From positions 1,822,673 to 1,886,672 of the forward strand of contig NZ_CP025938.1 of the NCBI RefSeq assembly GCF_002893765.1: a stretch of 64,000 nucleotides of DNA, written 5' to 3'. Below the pieces are notes generated by a model, which was given only the letters and a program-made list of their open reading frames with translations, was not told where the DNA came from and did no database searches. The position numbers were made by a program, and so were the translations under genes. The stretch comes from Pseudotamlana carrageenivorans (GTDB lineage: Bacteria; Bacteroidota; Bacteroidia; Flavobacteriales; Flavobacteriaceae). Position 1 is the first letter of the stretch; each line of letters begins with the position of its first letter. This document shows, in pieces, positions 4,757-40,319 of the stretch.

Positions 4757-4796
4757 TTCTAAAATCCCCCAACTTTTGCTCTTGATCCGTAAAAAG

Positions 4797-5622: not shown

Positions 5623-5836
5623 TTTAAATTGACCAAGTAGTAAGGGGTATTTATATAGCTTTGGCGAAGGTAGGTTTATTTTTTATTAATAGAAATGCTT
5701 AATAAAGCAATGTGCTGTTCTTTTGGCATACAAATATTATTTTTTTGAGGTTTTGGTGAAAATGTGCTATTGTTATTTTTTATCTTATGTTTAAAAGGAA
5801 AGCTTTTCCTATGTTGAATTTTTAAAGTGTATTTGA

Positions 5837-6202
5837 ATGAAAAAAGTATATCATGTTTTATTTATTTTAGGTCTTTTTATGGGTTTTAACTCATGCGGAT
5901 CTGATGATGCTGAAAATGCTATTGATTGCCTTTTTGAACCCGTAAATTTCAATGTAAATCATGTGATATCACCCAAAAACTCAAAGGAAGTGTCTTTTAT
6001 CTTGTTGTATACTGGTGAACATAATTTAGATGAAGAGGTCACATGGAATTTTGGAGATGGTACTACTCTGAAAATTTCAGGAACTAGGGCGACGCATACT
6101 TATTCTGATGCAGGATCGTATAAGGTGGTGGTAAAACCTACTGTTAGAAACGGAGATGCCTTTTGTTCTCCAAGTGTAGATAGGAATATTAATGTAGAGT
6201 AG
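5837..6202 (+). CDS. PKD-domain lipoprotein
   Basis: Lipoprotein signal (…GFNSCGSDD) and a PKD-like WNFGDGT…HTYSDAGSYKVVV motif. Confidence 0.55.
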   Translation: MKKVYHVLFILGLFMGFNSCGSDDAENAIDCLFEPVNFNVNHVISPKNSKEVSFILLYTGEHNLDEEVTWNFGDGTTLKISGTRATHTYSDAGSYKVVVKPTVRNGDAFCSPSVDRNINVE

Positions 6203-6303
6203 TTCAGGTTTTTAGTACATGTGAATTTTTCTAAAAAAATAAATCATGAGTAGCAATGAGTAATTTTGTACATTGCATGAGTTATACAATTTTATAATCA
6301 TTT

Positions 6304-7305: not shown

Positions 7306-7597
7306 TTTGTTAAAATTTCGGGTATTTCAGCGATTATAGGTTCCTTTTTTAGGGGGGCTTTATAATTTTAAATATTTGTAATTATATTAGAATGCTGAAT
7401 GGTTAAAAAATTGCTTCTTTATTTCCTGTAAAAAATCATTCATGGCTATTTCTGGCCATTTTTCTCTCAATATCCATACGCTAATGGTCGTGCATTTAAG
7501 TGCGATTTCATATGTTTTGTTTAGTTGATTTTTACGGTCTAAAATTCAAAATACATCAATTTTTTAAAATAATATTTAACCTGAAAAACTCAAAAAA

Positions 7598-7744
7598 ATG
7601 AAAATTCTTAAAATCACCTTATTAGTAGCAGTCTTTATCACTTTATTCACTTCTTGTACTAAAGAAGATTTACATGAAGATGATATGTTGATAGACGAAA
7701 CTTCAACGACATTAATCACAAGCGGAAATGTAGTTGAACGCTAA
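7598..7744 (+). CDS. Small acidic lipopeptide precursor (48 aa), paralogue 1 of 3
   Basis: MKILKITLLVAVFITLFTSC|TKEDLHEDDMLIDETSTTLITSGNVVER. It has a signal peptide, a Cys lipobox and acidic residues after Cys+1 (a Bacteroidota surface-export-like signal). The C-terminal TTLITxGNVVER is conserved in all three copies, and differences between copies are mostly synonymous. Confidence 0.55.
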   Translation: MKILKITLLVAVFITLFTSCTKEDLHEDDMLIDETSTTLITSGNVVER

Positions 7745-7829
7745 TAAAAAATAAATTTCTCAAATCAAATAACAATTAAAAAAACGTAAAAATGAGGCCT
7801 AATAGACAAAATGGTTGGTCTTTTAACGC

Positions 7830-9302: not shown

Positions 9303-10897
9303 GCTTGGGGATATGAGAACCTCGGTCTGTTTCTTCTTGTAGGAATAAGGAGCTTTGATCTAGATTATTCTTCAGTATGTTGGTTATCCTGTTGTAGCTT
9401 ACAGCATCAGCCTGTATGGCTCTTTTGCAAGCATTATCTAACCTTTGGGAGCCATAAGACTTATGGAGTTGTATAACGCCCATAGCTCTTTTATACCCTG
9501 TTTCAGGATAATCCAACGCAGCAATAATCCGCTCGACACATGCTGCAACATAACTACCATGGACAACTGCCTTGTTCTTAAAGTATTGCGGACTCCACTG
9601 GCTGTATTGTTTATGAGAACTACTAAGGTGATCCTTGTTGGTTATGTATGCGCCTTTGGAACCGCTACGTTGGTGTATAGCTATGCGCTGTTGATTATAA
9701 TACACCTCTACCATGCCTTTGGTATAGTGTAGCGTGGTTTCCTTGCCAATGTAACGATATGGAACGCTGTAGTAAGTCTTATCTGGTGAAAAATAGATAT
9801 AGCCTATTTTCTGAACCTTAGCTCTTCTATATTCTTTTATCTCGTAGCGTGTACTGCTTAAGGGTTTTAGATACTCTCGTTCGACGCTTTGGAAGAGCTC
9901 CAGACGACTAGCTTCTTTGCGTTGGAATAATAGGTTGTTGTAGCGCTCTAGTAGAAGTTTTATCTCTTTGTTTAGATCTGCTAAAGAAAAAAAGGTCATT
10001 TCCCGAAGGGGATAATAAATCCGTTGATAAGCTAGATGCACCGCGTTTTCCACCAGCGCTTTATCTTGAGGGGAGTAACTACGCGTTGGATTGACCACGC
10101 AGTTGTAATGGCGGGCAAAGTCTTTAAAACTACGGTTAACCTGAGCTTCGTATCTACTAGATCTGGTAACGACTGATTTTAGATTGTCTGATACGATGGC
10201 CTTGGGTACTCCCCCCGTAGAAATGAAGGGCGTTTTCGCAACAACTTATAAAATCTTCACGCTTTTGGCTCATACAAGCCTCAACATAGGTATACTGACT
10301 GTTAGGGAGCATGGCAACAAAGACCTCTACTGGAAGTATCTCGCCTGTGATTTTGTCTACTATCTGAAGTTTTTTTCCAGCAAAGTCCACGAACATCTCT
10401 TTCCCTGCCTCGTGTTCAAGTTTCATAGATCCCTTGATCTTGGCATATTTACGATGGTAATGCTCCATGAATTGAGTGTAACTATAAGGGTCTTTAACCT
10501 TTTGACTATATTCTGTGTAGTGGTACAAAAAAGTAAATCCTGGGTGGTTCCGAGCCTTATTAATACTTTCAAAATAAAGCATCAATTCATCATAGCGTTT
10601 GTTATTTATGGTTGTATGAGATGTAAAGAGCTTTTCTAGGGTGTGGTTGTCTAGCTTTAATAACTCCTTAAAACTATAACCACTACCTTTAAATAGGTGT
10701 ATATAGCTATTTATAGTGTTGCGGCAAATGCCAAGTGTGGCTCCAATTTGACGGTTACTATAACCATCTTGTTTTAAGTTGATAATTTGTTTTAGGTCCT
10801 TTGGATCAAGTGTGTTGGCCATATCGCTTTTTAGAGCAATAAGGTAATTACTTGATCTCTTAAAGTGGCACAAATCGAAACGGAAACATTGGCACAA
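9268..10897 (-). pseudogene. istA: IS21-family transposase IstA, frameshifted in a C6/G6 homopolymer at 10211-10216
   Basis: Listed ORFs 10157..10897 (HTH; …HFYGG) and 9268..10098 (…NPTRSYSPQDKALVENAVH…) join in one frame as HFYGG-VPKAIVSDNLKSVV…VVNPTR if one G is removed. The likely true start is the Met at 10822. Confidence 0.8.
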
Positions 10898-12351: not shown

Positions 12352-13705
12352 GAGTTTATCCAAAATTTTGTGTTTTTGAAAAATAATTTCAAAATTCATA
12401 GGTTAAAATAATATAGATTATAACCTGTTTGGAAAACAAATATACAATTGATTGTAAATTTGGCCCCATTTAAATCGTGTTTTCTTCCATTTTTTGCTGA
12501 TGCTTTGAGCTGCTAAATATATGGATTTCAGTGCTGCATCATCATGAGGGAAGACTTTTTTGTTGCGTGTATATTTTCTTAAACTGGCATTAAAACTCTC
12601 AATGATATTGGTAGTATATATAAGTTTTCTAATCTCTTTTGGGTAGTTTAAAAACGCGGTCAAATTATCCCAATTGTTTTCCCAAGACTGTACGGCAGAG
12701 AGGTATTTATCTTCCCAATTTTGTTTAAAGACTTCGAAAGCCTCTAAAGCGAATTTCTCATTATCGGCTTGATAAATAGCTTTAATATCGACCATTATTG
12801 ATTTACGGTCCTTATAGCTCACATATTTTAAAGAGTTTCTAATTTGATGTACGATACATATTTGACGTATACTACCTGGAAAAATAGCTTCTACAGCTTT
12901 ATCTAATCCAGAGAGGTTATCCGAACACAGAAAGAAGATATCTTTTACGCCTCTAGAGCGCAGATCGTCTAAAATGGACATCCAAGCAGCTGCCTTTTCT
13001 GTCTCCACAATACTCATGCTCAAAATATCTTGTTGCCCTTCGGTATTCACCCCTAAAACTATCATACAGGCTTTAGATATTACCTTGCCTTCTTGACGTA
13101 TTTTATAATGAATAGCATCTATCCAGACAATGGGATATACGTCTTCTAAAGGTCTATTCTGCCATTGTTTGATGTCTTCCAATAATTGATTGGTGATAAT
13201 GGATACCTGTGATGTGGAATACTGCACTCCATAGGTACTTTCAATAAAATCAATAATATCGCTATTGCTCATACCTTTGGCGTAAAGCAGTTGAATACAA
13301 TCTTCTAATTCTTGACTAATCGATTGATGTTTGGGGACAATAACAGGCTCAAAGCTCGCTTGACGATCTCTGGGGATTTTGATGCGTTGTTCGCCGTTAT
13401 GAGTCTTGATAGTTTTCTCTGAGAAACCATTGCGCTGGTTGTTCTCAATTACAGAACCTCCTTTTTGAAACCCTAAGTGGGCAGTCATTTCTGCTTTTAA
13501 AAGTGATTCAATACCACGTTTAAGCAACTGTTCCTTGACCTGGTCAAAGTCCTCCTTGTTGCTGATTTTGCCGATCAAGGCGTCTAATTGTTTTTCTAAG
13601 TCTGAGTTCATAAAATAAAAATTTAAAAGTAAATTTTTTGCCTATGAATTTCAAAATCATTTTTAAACTAACTAACAGCAAAAACACAAAATAGTTTACA
13701 GTCCC
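12352..13705 (-). mobile_element. IS256-family element copy 1 (1354 bp); 8-bp target-site duplication AGAGTCTA (12344-12351 and 13706-13713)
   Basis: Imperfect terminal inverted repeats gagtttatccaaaattttgtgtttttg and caaaaacacaaaatagtttacagtccc; perfect flanking direct repeats; identical to copy 2 at 33463..34816. Confidence 0.85.
12418..13611 (-). CDS. IS256-family (mutator-type) transposase
   Basis: 397 aa with the D…D…E and CxxH signature (…FPGSIRQICIVHQIRNSLKYV…TTNIIESFNASLRKYTRNKKVFPHDDA). Confidence 0.9.
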   Translation of the reverse strand: MNSDLEKQLDALIGKISNKEDFDQVKEQLLKRGIESLLKAEMTAHLGFQKGGSVIENNQRNGFSEKTIKTHNGEQRIKIPRDRQASFEPVIVPKHQSISQELEDCIQLLYAKGMSNSDIIDFIESTYGVQYSTSQVSIITNQLLEDIKQWQNRPLEDVYPIVWIDAIHYKIRQEGKVISKACMIVLGVNTEGQQDILSMSIVETEKAAAWMSILDDLRSRGVKDIFFLCSDNLSGLDKAVEAIFPGSIRQICIVHQIRNSLKYVSYKDRKSIMVDIKAIYQADNEKFALEAFEVFKQNWEDKYLSAVQSWENNWDNLTAFLNYPKEIRKLIYTTNIIESFNASLRKYTRNKKVFPHDDAALKSIYLAAQSISKKWKKTRFKWGQIYNQLYICFPNRL

Positions 13706-26700: not shown

Positions 26701-28089
26701 TTATTTTGAAAGTTCGGTGAAATATTTATAGAATAAAGGGATGGTTTCTATGCCTTTTAGGTAGTTCCAAATACCGAAATGCTCGTTTGGTGAGTGGATG
26801 GCATCGCTGTCTAAACCAAAGCCCATTAAAATGGTTTTACTTTTTAATTCTTGTTCGAAAAGGGAAACAATTGGGATGCTGCCACCACTACGTTGCGGTA
26901 TTGGCGTTTTTCCAAAGGCATCGCGATAGGCGTTGGATGCGGCTTGGTAACCAATACTATCGATAGGCGTGACGTAACCTTGTCCGCCATGATGCGGGTT
27001 TACTTTAACTTTTACGCCTTCGGGAGCGATGGCCTCAAAATGTGTTTGAAATAAATTCGTGATTTCCTTCCAGTCTTGATTTGGCACCAGACGCATCGAG
27101 ATTTTTGCATAGGCTTTGCTGGCGATAACGGTTTTTGCACCTTCGCCTGTATAACCTCCCCAGATACCATTAACATCTAAAGTTGGTCTAATGGAGTTTC
27201 TTTCGTTGGTAGTGTATCCTGCTTCGCCATAAACAGTATCAATATCTAAGGCTTTTTTATAGTTTTCTAAGTTAAATGGCGCTTTGGCCATTTCGGCACG
27301 TTCTTCTTTAGATAGTTCTTCCACACGATCGTAAAAACCTGGAATGGTGATGTGATTGTTTTCTTCGTGAAGTTGTGCAATCATTTTGGTTAACACGTTT
27401 ATGGGGTTGGCTACGGCACCGCCATACAATCCGGAATGTAAATCGCGATTAGGACCCGTAACTTCCACTTCTACATAGCTTAAACCACGTAATCCTGTGG
27501 TTATTGATGGCACGTCGTTAGCAATCATGCCTGTGTCGGATATTAAAATAACGTCGTTTTTAAGCTTATCGTGGTTGTTTTTAACAAAGTCCCCAAGGTT
27601 AACGCTACCAACTTCTTCTTCACCTTCAATCATAAATTTCACATTGCAGGGTAGCTGGTTTGTGTTGGTCATAAATTCCATAGCCTTAACATGCATGTAC
27701 ATCTGGCCTTTATCATCGCAGGCACCTCTGGCGAAAATGGCACCATCGGGATGCTTATCGGTGGTCTTGATTACGGGTTCAAATGGTGGGGAATCCCATA
27801 AATTGATAGGGTTTGGTGGTTGCACATCGTAATGTCCGTAAACCAAAACCGTGGGTAGATTTTTATCTATTATCTTTTCACCATAAACGATAGGATTGCC
27901 TGGGGTTTCATTAATTTCAACAAAATCGCAACCGGCTTGTTCTAAACGGAGTTTAACGGCTTCAGCGGTTTTTAAAACATCGGTTTTATAAGCAGAATCG
28001 GCGCTAATAGACGGGATTTTGAGGAGTTCAACCAGTTCGTTTAAAAAGCGTTCTTTGTTTTCTTGGATGTATTTTTGAATATCTTTCAT
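26701..28089 (-). CDS. M20-family metallopeptidase (dipeptidase-like)
   Basis: YGHYDVQPP, GACDDKG and EGEEE metal-binding motifs of M20/M28 dipeptidases. Confidence 0.75.
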   Translation of the reverse strand: MKDIQKYIQENKERFLNELVELLKIPSISADSAYKTDVLKTAEAVKLRLEQAGCDFVEINETPGNPIVYGEKIIDKNLPTVLVYGHYDVQPPNPINLWDSPPFEPVIKTTDKHPDGAIFARGACDDKGQMYMHVKAMEFMTNTNQLPCNVKFMIEGEEEVGSVNLGDFVKNNHDKLKNDVILISDTGMIANDVPSITTGLRGLSYVEVEVTGPNRDLHSGLYGGAVANPINVLTKMIAQLHEENNHITIPGFYDRVEELSKEERAEMAKAPFNLENYKKALDIDTVYGEAGYTTNERNSIRPTLDVNGIWGGYTGEGAKTVIASKAYAKISMRLVPNQDWKEITNLFQTHFEAIAPEGVKVKVNPHHGGQGYVTPIDSIGYQAASNAYRDAFGKTPIPQRSGGSIPIVSLFEQELKSKTILMGFGLDSDAIHSPNEHFGIWNYLKGIETIPLFYKYFTELSK

Positions 28090-28191: not shown

Positions 28192-28273
28192 GCGGGCGTG
28201 GTGGAATTGGTAGACACGCTAGACTTAGGATCTAGTGCCGCGAGGTGTGGGAGTTCGAGTCTCCCCGCCCGCA
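28192..28273 (+). tRNA. tRNA-Leu (anticodon TAG), long variable arm
   Basis: gcgggcg acceptor stem, anticodon loop cTTAGGa, variable arm tgccgcgaggtgtg and T-arm gggagTTCGAgtctccc; 82 nt. Confidence 0.85.
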
Positions 28274-28285
28274 CGATTTAAAGGA

Positions 28286-28316
28286 AAAAGCCGACTTTTT
28301 TAAGTCGGCTTTTTTG
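28286..28316 (+). terminator. Rho-independent terminator after tRNA-Leu
   Basis: aaaagccgacTTTTTTAAgtcggctttttt. Confidence 0.5.
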
Positions 28317-28418
28317 TTTAAAATTATTGTTGTCCGATAAAAAACAGAATTAGCTAAAAAAGCGTTGGTGTTGGCCTTTTTTATTGATCGCACTCTTTAT
28401 TTTGAAAACAGAACCTCC

Positions 28419-29521
28419 TTATGGGTCAAAAAGGCTTAATTGCCCAATGTTTTTGGTTGTAATCTCTTCCCAATTAGCTTCTGGGTTTTTCAGGAATTTG
28501 AACAAATCGATATATGTCATCAAATGGTATCGTATGACGGACATCATATTGGAATAAGCCCAGTTTCTTTGGGCTTTTCTTTGGATCACAAGCATAATGA
28601 GCTGGATTATCAAACTGACCCAGATTTGTATTTCGATGGCATTTTGATTGTCTCCCAAAAAATACTTTAGCGGAAAGTTCTGTTTAAGCCGCTTAAACAT
28701 CGTCTCAATCTGCCACCTATTTTTATAGATGTCGGCTATTTTGTCTGCATCAAGATCATAATTATTAGTGATGAACTCATAAACTTTTTGGTGCTTTTCG
28801 TGCCAAAAAGCGATTCTCCTCAGGGAAAAAGCATTGCCGTTTTTGTCCGTAAGCCCTATTTTTTCGTCCTTTAAGACAGCATCGTCCACTTTATTGGAGA
28901 TATCAAACTCTTCAAGGCTTGTATAGCGAGCATTGTCCTTTTGCCGAGTCACAAAGTAAACATCTTCCAGTGTCCATTTTTGGTATTGCTCATAATCCAC
29001 ATACCCTTTGTCAAAAACCACATAAGAGCCCTTCTTGAGTTCCAGGTCTTTTAAAAAGGTGTGGTCGTGCGTGGCCGCGCTTGAAAACTTAATCAGACAA
29101 GAAACGTCTTCCATGGCGTTTATCATAGTATGCATCTTGATACCTCCTTTCTTTTTGCCGTTGAGCGGGTTCCTTCCTACACCTTTAAGAATGTCACTAA
29201 ATAGGGGGATGGTCGAGGAATCAACGATTTTAAGGTTCTTCACTGCAGGTTCTAAGGGTCTGCTGTCCGATAAAAAGCGATGGTAACGTTTGTAGAGTAA
29301 ATGATAAATATCGGCAAATACTTCAGAGCTTCTTCTCCTGTTAGCATCTGACAAGGTACTGCGTTTTGGAAAGTCCGTGAGTCCTAGATGGTTGATCTTT
29401 CCCTCGCAGGCAAGCATAATACTGGAAACCTCACGAAGTGAGCTACAGCCACTGATCACGGTAAATACCATAGTGGCCAAATGCTCATAGGTGGTAAACT
29501 TTTTGGTATAGCGATCGCTGT
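28419..29521 (-). pseudogene. IS4-family transposase, distal 367 codons (first 34 codons lie at 30775-30875 beyond the IS3 insertion)
   Basis: Listed ORF 28419..29480 has DDE_Tnp_1-like motifs (…VFDKGYVDYEQY…YKNRWQIETMFKRLKQ). The frame continues upstream to the IS3 boundary. Confidence 0.65.
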
Positions 29522-29554
29522 TGGACTACCTAATAAATTTGGTACTATTTTATA

Positions 29555-30388
29555 CTAAGCAGCTTTGTTAATAAATCCTTTTAATTGTAATTCTTTTTCA
29601 AGAGGCGTCATGTATCCTAAACTAGAATGTAATCTTTGAGTGTTATACCAGTTTAAATATTGATCAATAGATTTGTATAATTGATTATAAGACGTATACT
29701 TAAATCTGTTAATCCACTCATATTTAATGGTTTTAAAAAAACTTTCAGCTACAGCATTATCCCAGCAATTTCCCTTTCTACTCATGCTTTGTATCACTTT
29801 TTGATTAAAAAAGAACATATTTGTGATTCTGTTGGATGCATATTGCACACCCCTGTCGGAATGAAAAATACACTGCTGGTTTATCACTCTGTTTCTTCTA
29901 GCATCAACCCAGGCCTTTAAAACCGTATTCTCAGTAGTCATATCTTCACTTAAAGACCAGCCTATTATTTTTCTATCAGCCAAATCCATTATCGTGGTTA
30001 AATAGTTCCATTGTTGATTAACTCTTATATACGTAATGTCAGAGACTAATTTGTAGCCTAAAGAAAAACTGGTAAAATCCCTGTCTAATTCATTTTTAGC
30101 TGTTTTTAGAGAATGATTTGAATCCGTAGTTACCACAAATTTCTTATTCAATACACTTCTTAGTCCCATTTCTTTCATAAGTAACCCCACATATGAACGG
30201 GAATAAAAAAGCTTTTCTCGTTCAAGTTGTTTTTGAATTCGATAGCTACCATAAATCTGTTTACTATTGTCAAATATAGCTTCGATTCTGTCTTTTAAAA
30301 ATGATTTAGAGGAATTAACCTTTAAGGTGTCTTTGGTTTTAAGCCAATGGTAATAAGCATTTTTACTAACCTTCATGCATTTGCACAT
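29555..30388 (-). CDS. IS3-family transposase OrfB (integrase core)
   Basis: DDE integrase-core motifs: …LSDITYIRVNQQWNYLTTIMDLADRKIIGWS…HSDRGVQYAS…. Confidence 0.85.
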   Translation of the reverse strand: MCKCMKVSKNAYYHWLKTKDTLKVNSSKSFLKDRIEAIFDNSKQIYGSYRIQKQLEREKLFYSRSYVGLLMKEMGLRSVLNKKFVVTTDSNHSLKTAKNELDRDFTSFSLGYKLVSDITYIRVNQQWNYLTTIMDLADRKIIGWSLSEDMTTENTVLKAWVDARRNRVINQQCIFHSDRGVQYASNRITNMFFFNQKVIQSMSRKGNCWDNAVAESFFKTIKYEWINRFKYTSYNQLYKSIDQYLNWYNTQRLHSSLGYMTPLEKELQLKGFINKAA

Positions 30389-30438
30389 CTTTTCGACAGG
30401 ATAAGTATTTTTGTTTGATAAAATGAAGTTATACCTTA

Positions 30439-30717
30439 TCAGTCGCTCTTGGAAAAGATGCTCACCGCCTTTTTTAAGATGTCACGTTCCATTTTAACAT
30501 CTCTTAATTCCTTTTTTAATGCTATAAGTTCTTGATGTTCTTTGGATTTAGGTTCATTTTTAGAAAAATCTCCTCCTTTTAAATCATACTCTTGTTTCCA
30601 TCTATTAATAACACTTGTATGAACTCCATATTCTTCACTCAGTTGTTTTGTTGGTATACCAGATTTGGATAAATCTAATATCATCGATTTAAACTCATTG
30701 TCATATTTTTTTCCCAT
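30439..30717 (-). CDS. IS3-family transposase OrfA (HTH, leucine zipper)
   Basis: MGKKYDNEFKSMILDLSKSGIPTKQLSEEYGVHTSVINRWKQEY…. Confidence 0.8.
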   Translation of the reverse strand: MGKKYDNEFKSMILDLSKSGIPTKQLSEEYGVHTSVINRWKQEYDLKGGDFSKNEPKSKEHQELIALKKELRDVKMERDILKKAVSIFSKSD

Positions 30718-31001
30718 AATTCAAATATAGTTTATACTCTATATAAAACCGTCACAACAAAGGTAGACACTTCACTGTTGTGCTTTTTGGCTGTCCGATG
30801 AACATCTTTGGGCAAAATGAAATTTAATACCTGTTTGATTATGGGTTGTCCGCTAAAGTTTTTACTTTTATTCATATCTTGGATGTGTGATAACTTCAAG
30901 ATACAAAATAAGCGGGAAATCCTATCTTGGAAATCCCGCTTTTAAAATCTTTTATCGGACACTAATGATTCCTAATCATCGTTTATTTCGCGATAATCGC
31001 G

Positions 31002-32999
31002 ATGTTTTACAAAAAAATACCGCAAGGACAAGCGCTCATTAGAACAGGGTTTGGTGGAACAAAAGTAGCGACCGACAAAGGTTTGTATACCGTTCCTGTT
31101 TTTCATAAAACAGAAATTATGGATATTTCGGTTAAGAAAATCCAAATTGAAAGACTGGCTCATGAAGGTCTTATTTGTAAAGACAACATGCGTGCAGATA
31201 TCAAAGTGGCCTTTTTTGTTCGTGTTAATAATGATATTGAATACATCAAAAAAGTAGCGCAAACTATAGGGGTGGATCGTGCTTCAAAAATAGCAACATT
31301 AGAAGATCTTTTTGAGGCTAAGTTTTCTGAAGCCTTAAAAACGGTAGGTAAGAAATTCGACTTTATCGAGCTCTATGAAGCTCGAAGAGAGTTTCGTGAT
31401 GAAATTGTAAATATTATCGGAACCGATCTTAACGGTTATACTTTAGAAGACTGTGCCATCGACTTTTTAGAGCAAACTTCTGTAAAAGAATTAAAGGCTG
31501 ATAATATTTTAGATGCTGAAGGTATTAAGAAAATCACCGAGCTTACTGCAGTTCAAAACATGAAAGCGAACCTGATTAAACGCGATGAAGAAAAAACAAT
31601 CAGAAAGCAGGATGTTGAAGCTAGAGAAGCCATTTTAGAGCTAGATAAACAATTAGCTGAAAAAGAAGAGAAGCAAAAACGTGAGATTGCAAATATTAAA
31701 GCTAGAGAAGATGCTGAAACGTTAAAAGTTAATGAAGAAGAACGTTTAAAATCTGAAAGTGCTCGAATTGCTACTGAAGAAAAGGTTAAAGTTGCTGAAG
31801 AAAATATGCAACGTCAAGTCATTGTAGCGCTTAAAAATAAAGAGCGTACTGAAGCTGTAGAAACCGAAAGAGTTGAAAAAGACAGGTTATTAGAGGCCAC
31901 AGAACGTGAGCGTGTTGTCACCCTGGCGCAAATTGAAAAAGAGAAAGTAGTTGAAGTTGAGAAAAAGAATATTCAAGATGTTATTAGAGATCGTGTGATG
32001 CTTGAAAAAGGTGTTGTTGAAGAGCAAGAAAACATGAAAGATATTCAAGCGTTTAAAACAGCAGATAGAGATAAGCAAGTTAAAATTACAACTGCTGAAG
32101 GACTTGCTCAAGAAGATTTAATTAGAACAACCATAGCAGCCGAAGCTCAAAAAGAAGCGGCTAAACAAAAGGCTGAAGAGATTAATATTGAGGCACTGGC
32201 GCATAAAGAAGCTAGCCAGAAACAAGCTGAAGCGCGTAAAATATTAGCCGAAGCTCAAGCTAAGGAGGAAGCTACTGTTGGAATGTCTGAAGCTCAGGTG
32301 ATGCATGCAAAAGCAGATGCTAATGAGCGTCAAGGCTTAGTTGAAGCAACCATTATTGAGAAAAAAGCGAAAGCCGAAGCTGCTGGTATTGAAGCCAAAG
32401 CTGAAGCAAAACGTAAAGAAGGTATTGCGGAAGCCGATGTGATTAAAGAAAAAGCCATTGCCGATGCTTCTGGAATTGAAGAAAAAGCAGCAGCAATGAA
32501 AAAACTTGATGGTGTAGGTAAAGATCACGAAGAGTTTAAATTACGTCTTAATAAAGACCTTCAAATTGATTTAGCTAATATTAATATTCAAAAGGAGATT
32601 GCCGATGCACAAGCTCAAGTGATAGGGGATGCCTTAAAAGCTGCTAAAATTGATATTGTTGGTGGTGAAACCATGTTCTTCGATCAAATTGTTGGACAGA
32701 TTACCAGAGGAAAAGGATTTGATCGCTTAGTTCAAAACTCTAATAACATTCAAGAGGTTAAAACGGCTATTCTAGGGAGTGATGACGTAAAGGGAAATCT
32801 CTTAGAAAAAGTGAAGGATTTTGCTTTGAAATATAATGTTTCCACCGAAGATCTTAAGAATATTAGCGTAGCTAGTTTAATTGCAGATTTGAAAATGAAA
32901 TCTAACGACCAGGAGGAGCATACCATGCTTGGAAACCTCTTAAACCTGGCTAAAGGTTTGGGGATTTCTGATAGTACCATTCCAAAGTTGATAAAATAA
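31002..32999 (+). CDS. Flotillin-family (SPFH/Band-7) protein; the 5' end is clipped by the IS4 element and the N-terminal membrane-anchor codons have no start
   Basis: SPFH core followed by about 250 aa of E/A/K-rich flotillin repeats. The in-frame upstream codons FLIIVYFAIIA (30969-31001) are preceded immediately by a stop and the IS4 inverted repeat. Confidence 0.8.
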   Translation: MFYKKIPQGQALIRTGFGGTKVATDKGLYTVPVFHKTEIMDISVKKIQIERLAHEGLICKDNMRADIKVAFFVRVNNDIEYIKKVAQTIGVDRASKIATLEDLFEAKFSEALKTVGKKFDFIELYEARREFRDEIVNIIGTDLNGYTLEDCAIDFLEQTSVKELKADNILDAEGIKKITELTAVQNMKANLIKRDEEKTIRKQDVEAREAILELDKQLAEKEEKQKREIANIKAREDAETLKVNEEERLKSESARIATEEKVKVAEENMQRQVIVALKNKERTEAVETERVEKDRLLEATERERVVTLAQIEKEKVVEVEKKNIQDVIRDRVMLEKGVVEEQENMKDIQAFKTADRDKQVKITTAEGLAQEDLIRTTIAAEAQKEAAKQKAEEINIEALAHKEASQKQAEARKILAEAQAKEEATVGMSEAQVMHAKADANERQGLVEATIIEKKAKAEAAGIEAKAEAKRKEGIAEADVIKEKAIADASGIEEKAAAMKKLDGVGKDHEEFKLRLNKDLQIDLANINIQKEIADAQAQVIGDALKAAKIDIVGGETMFFDQIVGQITRGKGFDRLVQNSNNIQEVKTAILGSDDVKGNLLEKVKDFALKYNVSTEDLKNISVASLIADLKMKSNDQEEHTMLGNLLNLAKGLGISDSTIPKLIK

Positions 33000-33191
33000 A
33001 AGTAGAGGCTTTCTGAAAAGTCGATAATATTTGAATTGTCAGGTGAGCTTGTCGAAACCGATATTGATTGTTAATCAGTAAAACTATTTCGATAGGCTCC
33101 ATATGACAGCTAAATACTTTTCAGCTTGCCTCCATTTTTAAAATTTAAAACGCTCAAACTAATTATAATTTAAAGTTCAGGACAGGATACA

Positions 33192-33462
33192 ATGACAAAG
33201 GACCCTATAAAGGAAGCGCACGCTCAAAAACTTGATGTTGGAACTTACGAGGTTATTCAAAATCGACTTCAAAAGCAAAAAACAGAATTACAGCAACGTC
33301 TTAAAAAACTTAACGAAGGTAGAAAGGTTGTTTTTGGATCTCTAGAAACAAAACTAATCACCAACGATCGTATTAATACAGAAAATAACTGTATTGCTAG
33401 AGATATTGTGTCTCTTGGAAACACTTGTTTGTTTGGTTATAATGTGCACTTTGGCTTACGAA
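33192..33462 (+). pseudogene. First 90 codons of the giant AAA+ ATPase gene, separated from the rest by IS256 copy 2
   Basis: …NVHFGLR stops at the IS boundary. Removing the IS and one copy of the target-site duplication restores HFGLR-TDIALNDVLSIYQFKENSFE in frame with 34845..39431. Confidence 0.6.
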
Positions 33463-34816
33463 GAGTTTATCCAAAATTTTGTGTTTTTGAAAAATAATTT
33501 CAAAATTCATAGGTTAAAATAATATAGATTATAACCTGTTTGGAAAACAAATATACAATTGATTGTAAATTTGGCCCCATTTAAATCGTGTTTTCTTCCA
33601 TTTTTTGCTGATGCTTTGAGCTGCTAAATATATGGATTTCAGTGCTGCATCATCATGAGGGAAGACTTTTTTGTTGCGTGTATATTTTCTTAAACTGGCA
33701 TTAAAACTCTCAATGATATTGGTAGTATATATAAGTTTTCTAATCTCTTTTGGGTAGTTTAAAAACGCGGTCAAATTATCCCAATTGTTTTCCCAAGACT
33801 GTACGGCAGAGAGGTATTTATCTTCCCAATTTTGTTTAAAGACTTCGAAAGCCTCTAAAGCGAATTTCTCATTATCGGCTTGATAAATAGCTTTAATATC
33901 GACCATTATTGATTTACGGTCCTTATAGCTCACATATTTTAAAGAGTTTCTAATTTGATGTACGATACATATTTGACGTATACTACCTGGAAAAATAGCT
34001 TCTACAGCTTTATCTAATCCAGAGAGGTTATCCGAACACAGAAAGAAGATATCTTTTACGCCTCTAGAGCGCAGATCGTCTAAAATGGACATCCAAGCAG
34101 CTGCCTTTTCTGTCTCCACAATACTCATGCTCAAAATATCTTGTTGCCCTTCGGTATTCACCCCTAAAACTATCATACAGGCTTTAGATATTACCTTGCC
34201 TTCTTGACGTATTTTATAATGAATAGCATCTATCCAGACAATGGGATATACGTCTTCTAAAGGTCTATTCTGCCATTGTTTGATGTCTTCCAATAATTGA
34301 TTGGTGATAATGGATACCTGTGATGTGGAATACTGCACTCCATAGGTACTTTCAATAAAATCAATAATATCGCTATTGCTCATACCTTTGGCGTAAAGCA
34401 GTTGAATACAATCTTCTAATTCTTGACTAATCGATTGATGTTTGGGGACAATAACAGGCTCAAAGCTCGCTTGACGATCTCTGGGGATTTTGATGCGTTG
34501 TTCGCCGTTATGAGTCTTGATAGTTTTCTCTGAGAAACCATTGCGCTGGTTGTTCTCAATTACAGAACCTCCTTTTTGAAACCCTAAGTGGGCAGTCATT
34601 TCTGCTTTTAAAAGTGATTCAATACCACGTTTAAGCAACTGTTCCTTGACCTGGTCAAAGTCCTCCTTGTTGCTGATTTTGCCGATCAAGGCGTCTAATT
34701 GTTTTTCTAAGTCTGAGTTCATAAAATAAAAATTTAAAAGTAAATTTTTTGCCTATGAATTTCAAAATCATTTTTAAACTAACTAACAGCAAAAACACAA
34801 AATAGTTTACAGTCCC
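33463..34816 (-). mobile_element. IS256-family element copy 2 (1354 bp, identical to copy 1); 8-bp target-site duplication CTTACGAA (33455-33462 and 34817-34824)
   Basis: Identical sequence and encoded transposase to 12352..13705; perfect flanking direct repeats. Confidence 0.85.
33529..34722 (-). CDS. IS256-family transposase (identical to 12418..13611)
   Basis: Identical 397-aa product. Confidence 0.9.
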   Translation of the reverse strand: MNSDLEKQLDALIGKISNKEDFDQVKEQLLKRGIESLLKAEMTAHLGFQKGGSVIENNQRNGFSEKTIKTHNGEQRIKIPRDRQASFEPVIVPKHQSISQELEDCIQLLYAKGMSNSDIIDFIESTYGVQYSTSQVSIITNQLLEDIKQWQNRPLEDVYPIVWIDAIHYKIRQEGKVISKACMIVLGVNTEGQQDILSMSIVETEKAAAWMSILDDLRSRGVKDIFFLCSDNLSGLDKAVEAIFPGSIRQICIVHQIRNSLKYVSYKDRKSIMVDIKAIYQADNEKFALEAFEVFKQNWEDKYLSAVQSWENNWDNLTAFLNYPKEIRKLIYTTNIIESFNASLRKYTRNKKVFPHDDAALKSIYLAAQSISKKWKKTRFKWGQIYNQLYICFPNRL

Positions 34817-34824
34817 CTTACGAA

Positions 34825-37800
34825 CAGATATTGCTTTAAATGATGTGTTGAGCATTTATCAATTTAAAGAAAATAGTTTCGAAGCTGTTTCTTTAGAGCT
34901 TCTTGAAGATGAGGTTTTTAAATTAGATTTCGAAAATCTCTTTAAATACTACCGCAATACTATTTTTTCAAAGTTCGCCATCATAGGGAATTACCTCTTT
35001 ATGGTTTTTCAGTTAAGTGATAGCGTTACAGATATTAAAACCTTTAAATGGTTAATAAAAGATGGCAGCCTTCAGTATATCGATAATCGAAGTGAACATG
35101 AGTATAAATTGCCATCTCAGCATGAGTTTAATTGGCAGGACGTTTCGCGAGATATGCATAGGCACGGTGTGCATGCCCATGTTTCAATCTTAGACCGAGT
35201 ATTTGTAGAAACTATTGGAGGCGATTTAACTATTAAAGTTGAAGATAATACCGAAGATGGTAAAGGGATTTATTCTGAAGAAGTAAAATATAGAGACCAA
35301 ACCTTAGATGATGCGCAGTATCGCTATGCAAATTTAGGCAACCTCATTGTTTTAGATGTAAAGCCATTTCAAGAAAGTTCGAGGTATTTTGTTTATAACC
35401 ATAAACTGAAAGAAGTTCAGAAAATTGAAAGTATCAAGGATGCTTGTGTTTTACTTCCAGACGATCATGGCATCATTTTCCCTACGGGATATTACCTTCA
35501 AACGGGCGAGTACCATATTTTCGATAACAGTATTTCCCATGTGAAATTTCAAGAAAAGGTAGCATCCCCAAATGGTGAAGATTATCTCTATGTGTTTTAT
35601 TCTGCAGAAAACGGACTCTATAATTTAATGAGTTACAACGTGATTTCGCAAGAGATTAAAACACCCATAATTTGTAATGGATTTACCATTTTAGAAGATG
35701 GCGAGTTATGTTATTTCAGAAATGAAAATGAACAAACTAAACATCATGTTATTCAAATTTGGCAAACGCCTTACATGAAAAGCGATTTTATGCCCTCTGC
35801 GCATGAAGATAACTTGCTTTATAAAATTGGGAATAAAGATATTGTAAAGGCGATGGCCGAAGTAAATGGTCTTGTAAATCTTCTAAATAAAGCAGACGAT
35901 TACGAGGGCTTGTATATTGATTTGGCTAAACAATCAAAGGATATTCTCGATGCTTACTATTGGTTAAAAGAAGCAGAAACCCAGCAATTAAACGAGCCCT
36001 TAAAAGAAATTAATCAAGCTGCAAATGCCGCTATTGATGAGTTTCAAAAAGTCTTGCAGTTAAAGAAAAATGCCGAACAACAAACTGCAGCGCTTGGTGA
36101 AAAGGCCGAGCTTTTATTTAATAAAATTAAAAGTACGGGGTTTAGAAGTGTAAATGACTTTGTTAGTTTCCTTACGCAGTTAAGGGGTTTAAGAGGGGAA
36201 TCTATAAGTTTAAAGGAGGTGCGTTATGTTGATGAAAATTATATAGATGCACTAGAAACGCAAATAGCCGAGCAAACCTCACGAATTTCAGAGCGTTGCG
36301 CTACCTTCCTTTTAGATGATAAAGCTTTAAAACCTTATGAAGATGAGGTTAAACTGAATGAAAAAGCTTTAGCCTCCATTAAAAAGGTGGTAGATGCTAA
36401 AAATTTAGAGGAGAAGGTAAATGTAATTTCTAAAGACCTCGAACTGCTTATCGACATTGTGTCGAATTTAGAAATTGAAGACACCTCACATTCTACCGGC
36501 ATTATTAATAACATCTCATTAATATTTTCAACCATAAATCAGTTAAAAGCTGAAATTAAAAATAAGAGGAAATCTCTCGGGAGTGAAGAAGCTCAAGCCA
36601 GTTTTGCTGCGCAGCTAAAGCTTATTGATCAGAGTATTATCAATTACCTTGATATTGTCGATGTGCCTGAGAAATGTGATGATTTTCAAACAAGAATTAC
36701 TATTCAGTTGGAGGGGTTGGAAGGCAAGTACGCCGATTTCGACACCTTTATTAACCTGATTATCGAGAAAAGAGAAGAGGTTTATAATGCCTTTCAGGCC
36801 CGTAAAAATAGTCTGGTTGAAAAGCGTAATAAACGGACTTTTGTTTTGCAAACTTCAGCAGAGCGTATTTTAAAAGGGATTCGTAAAAAGGCCGAATCGT
36901 TTTCGGAAGTTGCAGATATTAATGGCTATTTCGCTTCCGATATTTTGGTGAATAAAACCAGAGATATCGCCCAGCAGCTTCAAGACATGGATGATAGCGG
37001 TAAAGCAGAGGAAATTTTGTCTTTATTAAAATCTGCTCGTGAAGATGCTCTGCGAAAACTTAAAGATAAAAAGGAACTGTATGAAGATGGCGATAATGTT
37101 ATACGTTTAGGGAAGCATAAGTTTGGTGTTAATAATCAGGAATTAGATTTAACCATACTTTTTGCCGATGGCGGATTGAAGTACCACTTAACAGGAACCG
37201 ATTTTTATCAAAAAATAGAAAATGAAACCCTTTTAAAGTCCGAAGAATTCTGGGATCAAGATTATATTTCTGAAAATAAATACATCTATCGAGGGGCTTA
37301 TTTGGCGTATAAAGTTTTTCAAAATAATAATGCCTTAGTTATAGAAAGAACCGAAGAAAATCTTTTAAACATCGTTCAAGAAGTAAGTAGTAAAGATTAC
37401 TCGGAAGGTTATGTGAAAGGTGTTCATGATTTAGATGCGGTAAAGATTTTGTCTACACTAGTTCAAAAACATAAAGCATTGGGTCTTTTAAGATTTCATC
37501 CCGAAATTAGATCTTGTGCACAATATTTTTGGTATTTCACAGATAAGGAAAACCAGAAATACCTTGATGAAACTATAAAAGCTTCAGGAGAAGTGATTCA
37601 GTTTTTTCCAGCAACCCAAGAGTACGAATTCATATTAAAAAAGCTTCAAAAGAGTATCTTTAATATGGGAGAGACTTTGGGTATTTACGATGCGTCACTT
37701 TCCGCGGAAGCGGCAAAATACCTTTTTGAGGAACTTCAAAACGGCCATAGTTTTCAAAAGAGTGGTATTGCCATTCAAATAAAGGAAGCCTTTCTTAATA

Positions 37801-39431
37801 AATTAAAAGAAGAAAAGGCCGATCTTAAATTTAGAACAAGCATAGACAAATTGGAGTCTAACGAAGCAAAAGTGGCTTTAATTAGGCAGTGGGTTAAAGC
37901 CTTTTTAAGCAGTCAGCAAGATGAAGCGATTGGTTTGAAGCTAAAATATGTTAACGAAGTAGTTTGCCTCATTCTGTTTGAAGATGAAGCTGTCTTGAAT
38001 GCAAAATTTGTATCTCCTTCGGAAACCATTGAAGGTTTAGCAGGCGAACATGAGACTATTCAAAATGGGGTTTTTCAGTTTAATTATCACGATTTTATAG
38101 CTGCGCACTCCAATTATTTTGAAGAAAAAGTTCCTGCTTACAATGCTTTTAGAAAGGCCAAGCATGAAGTGACCGTGCAGTTGAAAGAAGATTTAAAATT
38201 GGAAGAATTTAAACCGGGTATTCTGAGTTCCTTTGTAAGGAATAAGTTGATAGATCAGGTTTATTTTCCGCTTTTTGGTGATAATTTGACGAAACAGTTG
38301 GGGGCTTTAGGTGACCAGAAAAGAACAGACAGAATGGGTTTATTACTGCTTATTTCTCCGCCCGGGTATGGTAAAACAACCCTTATGGAGTATATAGCAA
38401 ATAGGCTTGGTCTTGTTTTTATGAAGATTAACGGTCCTGCTATAGGGCACGAGGTGACATCGGTTGACCCGTCGGCGGCCACGAATTCTGCAACTCGTGA
38501 AGAGCTAAAGAAATTAAACTTAGCCTTTGAAATGGGGAATAATGTGATGTTGTATCTTGATGATATTCAGCATTGTAATCCTGAGTTTTTACAGAAATTT
38601 ATATCCTTATCTGATGGGACTCGAAAAATAGAAGGGGTTTACAACGGGAAATCCAGAACCTATGATCTTCGAGGAAAAAAATTCTGTGTCATCATGGCAG
38701 GGAACCCTTATACAGAAAGTGGTGAAAAATTTAGAATCCCTGATATGTTAGCGAATAGAGCCGATATTTATAACCTCGGGGATATTATTGGTGATACGGC
38801 GCATTTATTTAAGTTGAGTCTTATTGAAAACTCATTGACTTCTAATCCTATAATGCATCAATTAAGTAGCAAGAATTTTGATGATGTGTATCAATTACTT
38901 GATCGTATAGAGAACGGTAATCAAGAAGCGCAATTAACAGGTAATTATACCAATCAGGAGGTTCAGGAATATGTTTCTGTTTTAGAAAAAATCATTCAAA
39001 TTAGAGACACGGTTCTACAGGTTAATGCGAATTACATTAAAAGTGCTGCCATGGAGGATGAATATAGAACAGAGCCTTCATTTAAACTTCAAGGTTCGTA
39101 TCGTGATATGAATAAAATGGTTTCTAAAGTGTCGCCTGTTATGAATAATGAGGAATTAAAAACCCTAGTGCTAACACATTATGAAAGCGAATCTCAAACG
39201 CTTACTTCTTCCGCGGAAGCGAATTTATTAAAGTTCAAGGAGCTCGTAGCACAGTTAACAGATGTAGAACAAAAACGTTGGGCTGCTATAAAAGAAACGT
39301 TTCAAAAAAATAATAAGCTTAAAGGTTTTGGTGATAAAAACGACATGGCGCAGCTGCTTTCACAAATGATGCAATTTTCAGAAAACCTGGAAGGGATAAA
39401 GGAGGTACTTCAAAGCGGATTGCAAAAATAG
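34825..39431 (+). pseudogene. Giant coiled-coil protein with a C-terminal AAA+ ATPase domain, about 1620 aa when joined to 33192..33462; IS256-interrupted
   Basis: Walker A LLLISPPGYGKTTLMEY (~38340-38390), Walker B VMLYLDDIQHCNPE and sensor MAGNPYTESGE. The upstream ~1100 aa are rich in heptad-like K/E/L segments. Confidence 0.65.
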
Positions 39432-39437
39432 GACGTA

Positions 39438-39452
39438 TCTCCCCGCCCGCAC
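39438..39452 (+). repeat. 15-bp direct repeat of the tRNA-Leu 3' end (tctccccgcccgcac), followed by a near-copy of the tRNA-Leu terminator (39462-39496); att-like island boundary
   Basis: Exact match to 28260-28274. The downstream aaaagccgacTAttttGTAgtTggctttttt matches 28286-28316 with 4 mismatches. Confidence 0.6.
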
Positions 39453-39539
39453 TAATAAAAGAAAAGCCGACTATTTTGTAGTTGGCTTTTTTGTTTGTTT
39501 ATTCTGCCTCGTTTTTACTCGCAGTTCAGGTAATACTCA

Positions 39540-40319
39540 TTAAAAAGTCTTTACCACTTTAATTCTGAAAATAATATCATTCGTTCTATACAGTCCGCCA
39601 ATATTCTGTTCGGTGTAATGGTAGGCTAGCATACCTTGAATTTTAAACGTTTTGTCAAATTGGTAACCCGCTCCAGGGGTAATACGAATCACATCGCTAA
39701 ACTGCGAAAGTTCTACTACATTAAAAAAGAATTCTATACCCACAGGGAAATAAAATCCGCGTTCTTCTTGGAATAAAAAGCCTTGTAACCCAATATTTGT
39801 CATAATTTGGTAGCGAAAACGTAACCCAAAATGATTACTGCGGTCTTGTTTGGTAATTAAAAAGCGTTCTTCTAAACGAAAATAGTTAGTAAGATGGATG
39901 CGTTTGGTTAAAGGAAAAGCAACACGATATCCCTGAAAAGGTCTAATTTCCAGTGAATTATTTCCCGTTTTATTATTGAAGTAAAATAAACCTAGTCCGC
40001 CAATATAAGCTTCAGTACGTTTTAAATTCTTGAAAACAAATGGGCTAATCTGTTTTTCATAGCCAGCTCTTGCAATGTATCGGTCCCAGGTATTTGAGTT
40101 TATGGTGCGGTAACCAATATCTGCTTTAAGCGAAACACTATCTTTTAGCTTCCAATTAGGATTTAAAGTAAACCACAATTGTTGTGTAAACGCGTTGTCG
40201 TCTTCAAGAGGTTTGTCTTGGGTATAGCCCATGAAGTTCCAGCAAAAAATAAGGCTATATAAGCAACAAATAAATATCGACCTGGTAGTGTTTTTATGAA
40301 CAGGGCTAAAACAGCGCAT
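39540..40319 (-). CDS. Outer-membrane protein (DUF2490-like beta-barrel)
   Basis: N-terminal hydrophobic region, alternating-hydrophobic strands and C-terminal aromatic residue (…KVVKTF). Confidence 0.35.
   Translation of the reverse strand: MRCFSPVHKNTTRSIFICCLYSLIFCWNFMGYTQDKPLEDDNAFTQQLWFTLNPNWKLKDSVSLKADIGYRTINSNTWDRYIARAGYEKQISPFVFKNLKRTEAYIGGLGLFYFNNKTGNNSLEIRPFQGYRVAFPLTKRIHLTNYFRLEERFLITKQDRSNHFGLRFRYQIMTNIGLQGFLFQEERGFYFPVGIEFFFNVVELSQFSDVIRITPGAGYQFDKTFKIQGMLAYHYTEQNIGGLYRTNDIIFRIKVVKTF

Follow-up and report, generated by a model that had tools for sequence, protein, structure and literature searches.

The stretch analysed here, called the window, comprises 64,000 nucleotides (nt) of the Pseudotamlana carrageenivorans genome (NCBI RefSeq assembly GCF_002893765.1, contig NZ_CP025938.1, positions 1,822,673 to 1,886,672), and all positions below are counted from its first letter unless another genome is named. 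The locus in question lies behind an intact tRNA-Leu(TAG) gene at 28192-28274 on the forward strand (ARAGORN; Rfam RF00005, 60 bits, with one call ending at 28273), which forms the left anchor of an insert bounded on both sides by a short repeat of the tRNA end. Within the insert lie what is left of a flotillin gene, a gene for a giant AAA+ ATPase that is cut in two, and insertion sequences (IS). With considerable confidence, the two genes can be read as the remnant of a six-gene operon of a known type, probably concerned with envelope stress and membrane remodelling, which sits in the repeat-bounded insert at the tRNA and has been disrupted in the window.

The flotillin remnant (30972-32999, forward strand) encodes a transmembrane segment, an SPFH/Band-7 domain (PF01145 Band_7, 2e-14) and a coiled coil. 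It keeps codons 18-692 of 692, the deletion having removed the start codon along with 17 residues at the beginning of the membrane anchor; the frame is open back to the edge of an IS4 element at 30972, and the first in-frame ATG lies at 31002. Its translation starts with LIIVYFAIIAMFYKK..., as against MESILPIIGIGIGVLLFLIIVYFAIIAMFYKK... in the orthologue of Tamlana sp. s12, with which it shares 99.5% amino-acid identity at a ratio of nonsynonymous to synonymous divergence (dN/dS) of 0.014. The ATPase gene begins 192 nt behind the flotillin gene in the same orientation and is divided into a 5' fragment with codons 1-90 plus 1 nt (33192-33462, forward strand) and a 3' part with codons 91-1625 (34825-39431, forward strand), the latter containing most of DUF3686, the DUF7902 region, a small β domain, a helical region and the AAA+ module. 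Once the intervening IS256 element and one copy of the octamer CTTACGAA are taken out, the fragments join into an open frame of 1625 codons, whose best database match is the intact, 98% identical protein of Tamlana sp. s12; in the direct comparison the amino-acid identity is 98.5% and dN/dS is 0.053. For both genes dS against s12 is 0.13, while the flanking genes range from 0.11 to 0.23. The flotillin and ATPase genes were thus under strong purifying selection until very recently.

Both genes are damaged by IS elements. An IS4-family element (28322-30970, reverse strand; NF033592, 192.7 bits) is framed by inverted repeats at 28322-28342 and 30950-30970, and its transposase gene (DDE_Tnp_1, DUF4372) is split by a nested element into a C-terminal part at 28419-29480 and about 33 N-terminal codons around 30779-30877, both on the reverse strand. 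The nested element belongs to the IS3 family (29515-30778, reverse strand, with boundaries that are approximate and end sequences that were read) and carries orfA (30439-30717; HTH_Tnp_1) and orfB (29555-30388; rve/rve_3/HTH_21). An IS256-family element with inverted repeats (33463-34816, reverse strand) interrupts the ATPase gene; its transposase gene lies at 33529-34722 (Transposase_mut 4.7e-109; NF033543) and its 8-bp target duplication, CTTACGAA, at 33455-33462 and 34817-34824. A second copy of this element, at 12352-13705 in the window, is 100% identical over 1354 nt, so that the insertion into the ATPase gene can be taken as recent. A sequence-only reading of the window had described the same state of affairs, with an IS4 element containing a nested IS3, an IS256 copy, a flotillin start lost at the IS4 edge and an ATPase split after codon 90, and inverted repeats, profiles and the target duplication bear it out on all these points.

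The extent of the loss can be read from the comparison with Tamlana sp. s12. In a blastn alignment the window stops matching at 28319 and resumes at 30968, and positions 4692-7775 of the s12 locus (L001) find no match, so the composite IS4 element stands in place of 3,084 bp of s12 sequence. These 3,084 bp contain the genes for a repressor, a CesT-like protein, PspA and a YqiJ/YuaF-like protein, and also 47 nt at the start of the flotillin gene. The loss of these four genes and of the beginning of the flotillin gene is associated with the IS4 element, which the IS3 element hit later. As s12 holds six genes at the site, the two-gene cassette of the window is a deletion product, and the earlier view of a compact cassette with only two genes as cargo has to be given up. 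The IS4-associated deletion and the IS256 split are both recent, since the surviving coding sequence shows a dN/dS of 0.01-0.05 against s12. In the window genome the system is dead.

The s12 site has the flanks of the window, with the M20 peptidase gene and tRNA-Leu on the left and genes for DUF2490, Por_Secre_tail and GH16 proteins on the right, and its intact unit spans about 10.2 kb. The first gene, divergently oriented, encodes a 252-residue XRE helix-turn-helix (HTH) repressor (HTH_19/HTH_3) with a LexA/S24-like C-terminal domain; it is followed by genes for a CesT/Tir-like chaperone of 131 residues (CesT_Tir_1, 6e-56), a PspA/IM30 protein of 238 residues (PspA_IM30, 1e-41), a putative YqiJ/YuaF-like (NfeD-like) membrane protein of 236 residues with hydrophobic segments recognised by eye, the membrane-anchored flotillin (SPFH) of 692 residues (Band_7) and, as the sixth, the 1625-residue ATPase with a β-propeller-like domain, coiled coil and AAA+ module. 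PspA/IM30 is a bacterial membrane-repair polymer of the ESCRT-III family. The 236-residue protein gave no Pfam match and a single match in the PDB, YuaF, which is weak (E 0.25); in Hymenobacter its counterpart carries the annotation DUF1449, and the regulator of that cassette is listed as a LexA family protein.

An operon of this composition is on record. The comparative-genomics study PMC11237479 (mSystems 2024) describes, in its passages on the system, a CesT/Tir–PspA dyad accompanied by a Band-7/flotillin protein, a YqiJ/YuaF-type transmembrane protein and an ATPase made of a β-propeller, a coiled coil and an AAA module; according to the same passages, abbreviated flotillin/YqiJ/ATPase operons are widespread, and the function, given as a prediction, lies in chaperone-like assembly and membrane dynamics. 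Table S3 of that study contains the operon of Dokdonia donghaensis (ANH61663.1) with a divergent 'cHTH+Protease' regulator. Orthology to this published exemplar was judged via Dokdonia sp. R86516 rather than from the D. donghaensis sequence: the R86516 layout matches the Table S3 entry, including PadR and PspC/Toastrack genes, which lie directly upstream of the cassette, and the ATPases of R86516 and the window share 71% identity. The s12 locus and Dokdonia sp. R86516 have the gene set and order of the published operon, its divergent cHTH+protease regulator included, and the window keeps the last two of its genes; unlike the published operon, the window copy has lost the other four, and neither of the two that remain is intact. 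The tRNA-Leu-derived repeats that bound the window and s12 copies are a further difference, in that they do not figure in the paper's passages on the operon or in Table S3. The window has no CesT/Tir–PspA dyad, its place being taken by the IS4 element; as the orthologous s12 site does have the dyad, the absence is a secondary deletion. The pair had not been recognised as a named system; in view of the operon in PMC11237479, of its Dokdonia orthologue in Table S3 and of the place of the ATPase in Pfam DUF3686 and DUF7902, that impression no longer holds.

The same six-gene order is found in Tamlana agarivorans, Gramella sp. MT6, Formosa sp. PL04, Dokdonia sp. R86516 and Echinicola, with flanks that all differ, and neither an integrase nor a tRNA lies next to the cassette in the T. 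agarivorans, Gramella, Dokdonia and Echinicola loci (Formosa, in which a tRNA fragment is involved, is treated below). A full cassette is present on a 169-kb Hymenobacter plasmid, where the genes are annotated in turn as LexA family regulator, chaperone Tir, PspA/IM30, DUF1449, hypothetical protein and DNA repair ATPase. A polyamine-module variant occurs on the Pseudomonas fluorescens SBW25 megaplasmid pQBR103 (record 84437-97641) with genes for YjfI, PspA, a rhomboid protein, DUF2491, DUF350, DUF1190, glutathionylspermidine synthase, an SPFH protein and a 'DNA repair ATPase'; this plasmid is well studied and would offer a handy experimental entry to the ATPase family. Gene order is thus conserved, being strict across Bacteroidota with variant forms in Proteobacteria and other phyla. 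The association of flotillin and ATPase, which had been put forward as a true pair, is near-obligate: of the 80 metagenomic loci retrieved with the AAA+ region, 48 extend 2.6 kb or more upstream of where the ATPase gene begins, and a co-oriented flotillin gene ends within 1.5 kb of that start in 44 of these and within about 4 kb in 47. CesT, PspA and flotillin genes occur together in 19 of the 37 metagenomic loci with enough sequence.

The rejoined ATPase matches DUF3686 at residues 32-469 (1.8e-178), DUF7902 at 590-674 (1e-23) and AAA/AAA_5 at 1264-1388. Homologues number more than 5,000 in the protein database, with 65-85% identity across Flavobacteriaceae genera and to Echinicola of the Cytophagales. 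At 50% identity, the propeller-domain region yields only 557 clusters from 1.8 billion representatives, most of them proteins of 1600-2000 residues; the family is therefore widespread but slowly evolving. The AAA+ motifs comprise Walker A (GYGKTT), Walker B (LYLDD) and a sensor-1 asparagine in AGNPY, with residues that are invariant in 58 homologues. AlphaFold2 models (pLDDT 72 and 75) predict an N-terminal helix at 16-48, a β-rich propeller-like domain at 69-401, long helices at 421-839, a small β domain at 850-887, a helical region at 913-1142 and a C-terminal α/β AAA+ core with lid. The C-terminal AAA+ module postulated beforehand is well founded, in Pfam as well as in the model: Foldseek places the core with NorQ/CbbQ (MoxR), Vps4, spastin, Rix7, Lon and p97 at E values of about 1e-6, and these matches confirm the AAA+ fold while several clades match alike. 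The N-terminal portion of about 1100 residues, by contrast, had been taken as coiled coil throughout, which fits the long helices of the model at 421-839 and 913-1142 and does not fit the propeller-like domain and the small β domain. Sequence matches of the ATPase in the PDB, for instance to Cdc48/Rix7, are confined to the Walker A region, and a PDB sequence search with the flotillin found no match.

Databases give this family a different role. Pfam describes DUF3686 as 'ATPase involved in DNA repair' and most homologues at NCBI are named 'DNA repair ATPase', and one may ask whether the large protein is indeed a repair enzyme whose flotillin neighbourhood is incidental. Its regulator is LexA-like, and RuvB turns up among its weak P-loop-level matches; these matches, however, extend over about 45 residues around Walker A and reach 22 bits against a curated cut-off of 282, and Pfam identifies no nuclease, helicase or DNA-binding domain in the protein. 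Moreover, the gene nearly always follows that of a membrane flotillin, often together with PspA and NfeD-like genes, and the literature search found no support for a role in repair. A DNA-repair function is accordingly rated as extremely improbable.

The envelope-stress and membrane-remodelling reading gains its content from related systems. PspA is likewise encoded with an SPFH-domain protein in the ydjFGHI(L) operon of Bacillus subtilis, and according to the title of Scholz et al. 2021 (PMC8581546), as cited in the review PMC7619361 (2025), PspA depends on an SPFH-domain protein for its link to the membrane in this species. A flotillin paired with an NfeD-like YuaF/YqiJ membrane protein is the arrangement of yuaF-floT and of E. 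coli yqiJK. Those three systems are nonetheless without a giant AAA+ ATPase or a CesT-like chaperone, and the flotillin here is longer (692 residues), with an extended coiled coil rich in E, A and K. A third likeness is to ESCRT-III/Vps4 (CdvB/CdvC in archaea, Snf7/Vps4 in eukaryotes), since PspA, a polymer of the ESCRT-III superfamily, is encoded with a single-module AAA+ ATPase whose modelled core aligns to Vps4 structures at an E value of about 4e-6; it is this pairing of polymer and AAA+ gene, together with the fold match, that suggests an ATPase working like Vps4. Unlike Vps4, the protein has no MIT domain, is four times larger and carries its AAA+ module at the C-terminus, behind the propeller and the coiled coil. 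In the review PMC7619361, a Vps4-like ATPase is described in the passage concerned as apparently absent in bacteria.

By analogy with SPFH-dependent PspA recruitment in B. subtilis and with Vps4 acting on ESCRT-III, the operon may serve to remodel membrane assemblies of PspA or flotillin at the expense of ATP. In such a scheme, the flotillin and its NfeD-like partner would form a membrane platform, to which PspA, held in check by the CesT-like chaperone, would be recruited when the membrane is damaged. The AAA+ ATPase, presumably a hexamer, would dock through its propeller and coiled coil and use ATP to assemble, remodel or recycle polymers of PspA, flotillin or both, and the HTH/S24-like repressor would free the operon upon a stress signal.

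A different purpose, suggested at the outset by the combination of a membrane scaffold and an NTPase in a tRNA-linked island that gathers IS elements, would be anti-phage defence, with a mobile module that senses infection at the membrane and then aborts it or excludes the phage. PspA was first found as a phage-induced protein. The regulator is CI/LexA-like, as is typical of mobile elements, the cassette has plasmid copies and a patchy chromosomal context that varies between genomes, and the locus is hypervariable, tRNA-adjacent and bounded by direct repeats. One suggestive item is found in Dokdonia sp. R86516, in which a gene for a 193-residue protein with the superinfection-exclusion domain SieB (PF14163, 3e-27) lies at 9357-9938 between flotillin and ATPase. 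Yet the profiles of PADLOC-DB v2 gave no specific match for the six proteins: the best match of the ATPase was mad8 (E 0.0012, in the P-loop region), the flotillin, CesT-like, NfeD-like and SieB-domain proteins had none, PspA had low-scoring ones that were read as coiled-coil noise, and the regulator matched as a generic HTH protein only. Two scans of viral contigs, 2.9 million in number, and a tblastn search of 50,697 phage records detected no copy. The family also evolves slowly (65-85% identity between genera, 557 clusters, dN/dS 0.01-0.05), unlike typical defence genes, only 3 of the 80 metagenomic loci have a tRNA less than 10 kb away, and the recognisable partners are all components of the envelope-stress response. 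A defence or conflict island is therefore an unlikely description of the locus, and an operon for envelope stress and membrane remodelling remains the preferred one.

The question of how the operon came to lie behind a tRNA begins with the repeat. The last 15 nt of tRNA-Leu(TAG), TCTCCCCGCCCGCAC, occur in exact form only at 28260-28274 and 39438-39452, no further copy exists in the window with up to two mismatches allowed, and the chance expectation for such a repeat is 0 (0/100 shuffles gave a match). The left copy (28260-28319, forward strand) consists of this core and a terminator hairpin with arms at 28277-28297 and 28302-28322; the right copy (39438-39496, forward strand) consists of the core, a spacer of native type and a hairpin at 39460-39492 that was flagged as terminator-like, and related hairpins with a T-run thus stand 3' of each core. 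The right core begins 6 nt past the ATPase stop codon, and the interval between the repeats measures 11.2 kb. In Tamlana sp. s12 the repeat is perfect over about 70 nt, made up of 15 nt of tRNA, the spacer and the terminator, and bounds the orthologous insert, its distal copy (L001 14885-14954) having the same structure as in the window. The repeat accordingly reaches about 55 nt past the tRNA into the terminator and includes only about 15 nt of the tRNA itself; a putative att core at this tRNA can be written as (G)TCTCYCCGCCCGCAC. The spacer on the right of the window is of the native Tamlana type (TAATAAAGGAAAAGCC...), as in the cassette-free Tamlana sp. I1, whereas the left spacer and hairpin differ from that type, which is the pattern expected of attL versus attR. 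The direct repeat and paired terminators noted in the sequence-only reading, which had taken them for the signature of a tRNA-integrated element, are therefore real.

The site itself is a conserved landmark with variable contents. The M20 peptidase gene to the left (26701-28089, reverse strand) is adjacent to tRNA-Leu across Flavobacteriaceae: in a scan that used this peptidase as the query against 185,579 species genomes, and from which 80 loci were checked, the pair of M20 and tRNA-Leu(tag) is kept in about 70 of the 80 Flavobacteriaceae species, with the tRNA about 100-300 nt from the M20 gene start. The cassette was not found within 10 kb of this site in any of the 80 other Flavobacteriaceae species, the closest Tamlana and Algibacter relatives included. 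Within 5 kb downstream of the tRNA, 33 unrelated gene contents were counted among 61 genomes (60 species loci and s12). A 6.9-kb island at this tRNA in Flavobacterium frigoris encodes a tyrosine integrase (Phage_integrase, SAM_5 and Arm domains), and its repeat measures 32 nt. In Aquimarina pacifica, a 9.5-kb insert (L050 246-9754) is bounded by a 16-nt repeat whose first nucleotide falls on the tRNA position where the Tamlana repeat also begins, and carries genes for an HSDR_N-domain protein, lipoproteins and a response-regulator-like protein; no integrase was found in it, only two of its open reading frames having been scanned against Pfam. Formosa sp. PL04 has an insert of about 27 kb behind an intact tRNA, bounded by a repeat of about 95 nt that starts in the anticodon loop, and a 52-nt tRNA-Leu fragment of Formosa type with a terminator of the same hairpin type stands directly before its six-gene cassette. 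In at least two genera, therefore, the cassette has been located directly behind tRNA-Leu. Inserts at this site fall into at least three repeat classes, in some of them without an integrase being found, and since several share it, tRNA-Leu(TAG) is an integration hotspot in Flavobacteriaceae.

A number of observations weigh against the reading of a remodelling operon placed here by integration. On the side of function, the literature search found no experimental paper on the ATPase family and none that mentions DUF3686, so the remodelling role is assigned by analogy only; the combination of 'flotillin' and 'DNA repair ATPase' returned nothing. The MoxR-type NorQ/CbbQ folds score as high as Vps4 and classical AAA proteins and therefore leave no evidence for a specific kinship with Vps4. 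AAA_5 reaches 27.9 bits at a cut-off of 22 and the TM-score to NorQ/CbbQ is at most 0.63 on the target; a gene for a VWA-domain partner was not found in the cassettes examined (s12, T. agarivorans, Gramella, Formosa, Dokdonia, Echinicola and the Hymenobacter plasmid). Neither a MIT domain, by Pfam, nor another known ESCRT-III-binding module was identified in the ATPase. The assignment of the propeller is weak, as it draws on the published one (PMC11237479) and on fold matches over about 350 residues that are β-propellers with E values of 1e-3 or more, no match of the N-terminal model having an E below 1e-3.

On the side of position, domain scans identify no tyrosine or serine recombinase between the repeats, and an integrase was found neither in the window nor in s12: the only transposases between the repeats are of the DDE type and all belong to IS elements, and the six genes of the s12 insert are assigned otherwise. 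A tblastn search with the F. frigoris integrase likewise found nothing in the window, a query that would miss distant recombinases, and the absence of an integrase between the repeats, remarked upon earlier, stands. The GC content of the cassette (0.34-0.38) shows no anomaly against the flanks (0.31-0.41), and its dS of 0.13 is not discordant with theirs, so that no recent transfer is visible; a recent horizontal transfer was rejected on this ground. The genes on the right flank of the window (DUF2490, Por_Secre_tail) lie beside the tRNA in 0 of the 80 loci, and a clean empty or attB junction was therefore not obtained. The repeat starts just after the T-loop instead of inside it, the right-hand repeat in Formosa is a copy of the terminator without tRNA core, and the tRNAs within 10 kb in 3 of the 80 metagenomic loci do not stand beside the cassette in any of them, most copies having no link to a tRNA.

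The lack of an integrase, the GC content and the dS values are also what an ordinary vertical operon of the chromosome would show, its repeat being a local duplication of the tRNA 3' end and terminator and its differing flanks the outcome of rearrangement in Flavobacteriaceae. Such an origin would suit the many cassette copies without tRNA or repeat, and Gelidibacter, Olleya and Maribacter do have tRNA-Leu 3'-end repeats about 115-119 nt apart that contain no cargo. It fits poorly with the way the cassette fills the interval between the repeats almost exactly, with its absence from the M20/tRNA-Leu site in the 80 species and with left and right spacers in the window that differ in type as attL and attR do. 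The unrelated Aquimarina insert with the same repeat start, the integrase-bearing island at the same tRNA, the Formosa cassette after the same tRNA-Leu with the same type of hairpin, and the plasmid-borne copies all speak against it as well. Purely vertical descent with a local duplication is for these reasons considered doubtful, with little probability attached to it.

What most likely remains is that the repeat-bounded position of the operon records site-specific integration or homologous exchange via tRNA-derived ends. The event could have been a site-specific insertion long ago, or homologous recombination at a later time between the conserved ends formed by tRNA and terminator; the recombinase may have worked in trans or may since have been lost, and from the last shared ancestor of s12 and the window strain onwards the insert would have been passed on vertically. 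The comparison with tyrosine-integrase islands at tRNA genes is instructive in both directions. As in those islands, an intact tRNA immediately precedes the insert and a repeat of that tRNA's 3' end closes it on the far side, at a hypervariable site where F. frigoris harbours an integrase-bearing island; unlike them, it has no integrase, excisionase, mobility gene (besides the IS elements) or compositional signature, and its cargo is a single conserved operon that elsewhere is usually not linked to a tRNA. The proposal of a tRNA-integrated element thus survives in part, with a real repeat and a cassette missing from the site in 80 species, but without an integrase, a GC shift, a discordant dS or an exact empty junction.

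A more far-reaching version would see in the 10-kb operon an integrase-less mobile module that moves or is exchanged between genomes of Flavobacteriaceae via tRNA-Leu ends, by an integrase in trans or by homologous recombination, and in the ATPase the bacterial counterpart of Vps4 for PspA/ESCRT-III, possibly directed against membrane-attacking invaders, as the SieB-domain insertion in Dokdonia may hint. Taken as a whole, this version is a long shot.

As the operon type is already in the literature and the copy in the window is a dead remnant, the finding is in itself mostly ordinary. The ATPase family retains some interest: it is slow-evolving, spans phyla, is nearly always encoded directly after a flotillin gene, often with PspA, and bears the misleading name 'DNA repair ATPase'. 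It is an obvious candidate for the Vps4-like regulator of bacterial ESCRT-III/PspA polymers that, in the passage of PMC7619361 on this point, is said to be lacking in bacteria, and intact orthologues in Tamlana sp. s12, Dokdonia, Christiangramia forsetii and on plasmid pQBR103 make this candidate role testable.

Some minor features of the tRNA-Leu site and its surroundings were also recorded. The DUF2490 gene to the right of the insert (39540-40319, reverse strand) has a dS of 0.85 and 86.5% amino-acid identity against s12, compared with a dS of about 0.1-0.2 for its neighbours, and the spacing from the repeat to this gene is longer by about 175 nt in s12; both points suggest that sequence was recombined or replaced locally at the right junction. 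The sequence behind tRNA-Leu in Tamlana sp. I1 matches the window at 3514-4788 (96% over about 1.3 kb) and also at 1942-2103, with a weaker, paralogous match of 65% identity at 2145-3251. These matches were considered as synteny and rejected; the match of about 1.3 kb probably represents a shared repeated or mobile element, IS or other.

A short direct repeat, GGTACAACATAGGTACAAC, recurs 3' of the tRNA-Leu terminator in four genera (Formosa sp. PL04, L023 at about 9700-9740; L007, L011 and L014) and looks like a conserved end, possibly with arm-type sites, of a shared integrative element, which in Formosa spans about 27 kb. Units of about 115-119 nt follow tRNA-Leu(tag) in Gelidibacter gilvus (L035 1-711), Olleya aquimaris (L049, about 9500-9877) and Maribacter sp. 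(L076, about 9500-9889); each unit ends in the last ~16 nt of the tRNA plus terminator and has the conserved body GAGACGAGAAGTTTAyCCTGAGC...GTCGAAGGGAG. In Rfam, the window and the Olleya units matched nothing beyond tRNAs. In Gelidibacter the tRNA 3' end is present six times, that of the tRNA itself included, along with pseudo-tRNA-Leu(taa)-like copies without the 5' acceptor strand, and the units of the three genera may be remnants of att sites or small tRNA-like elements.

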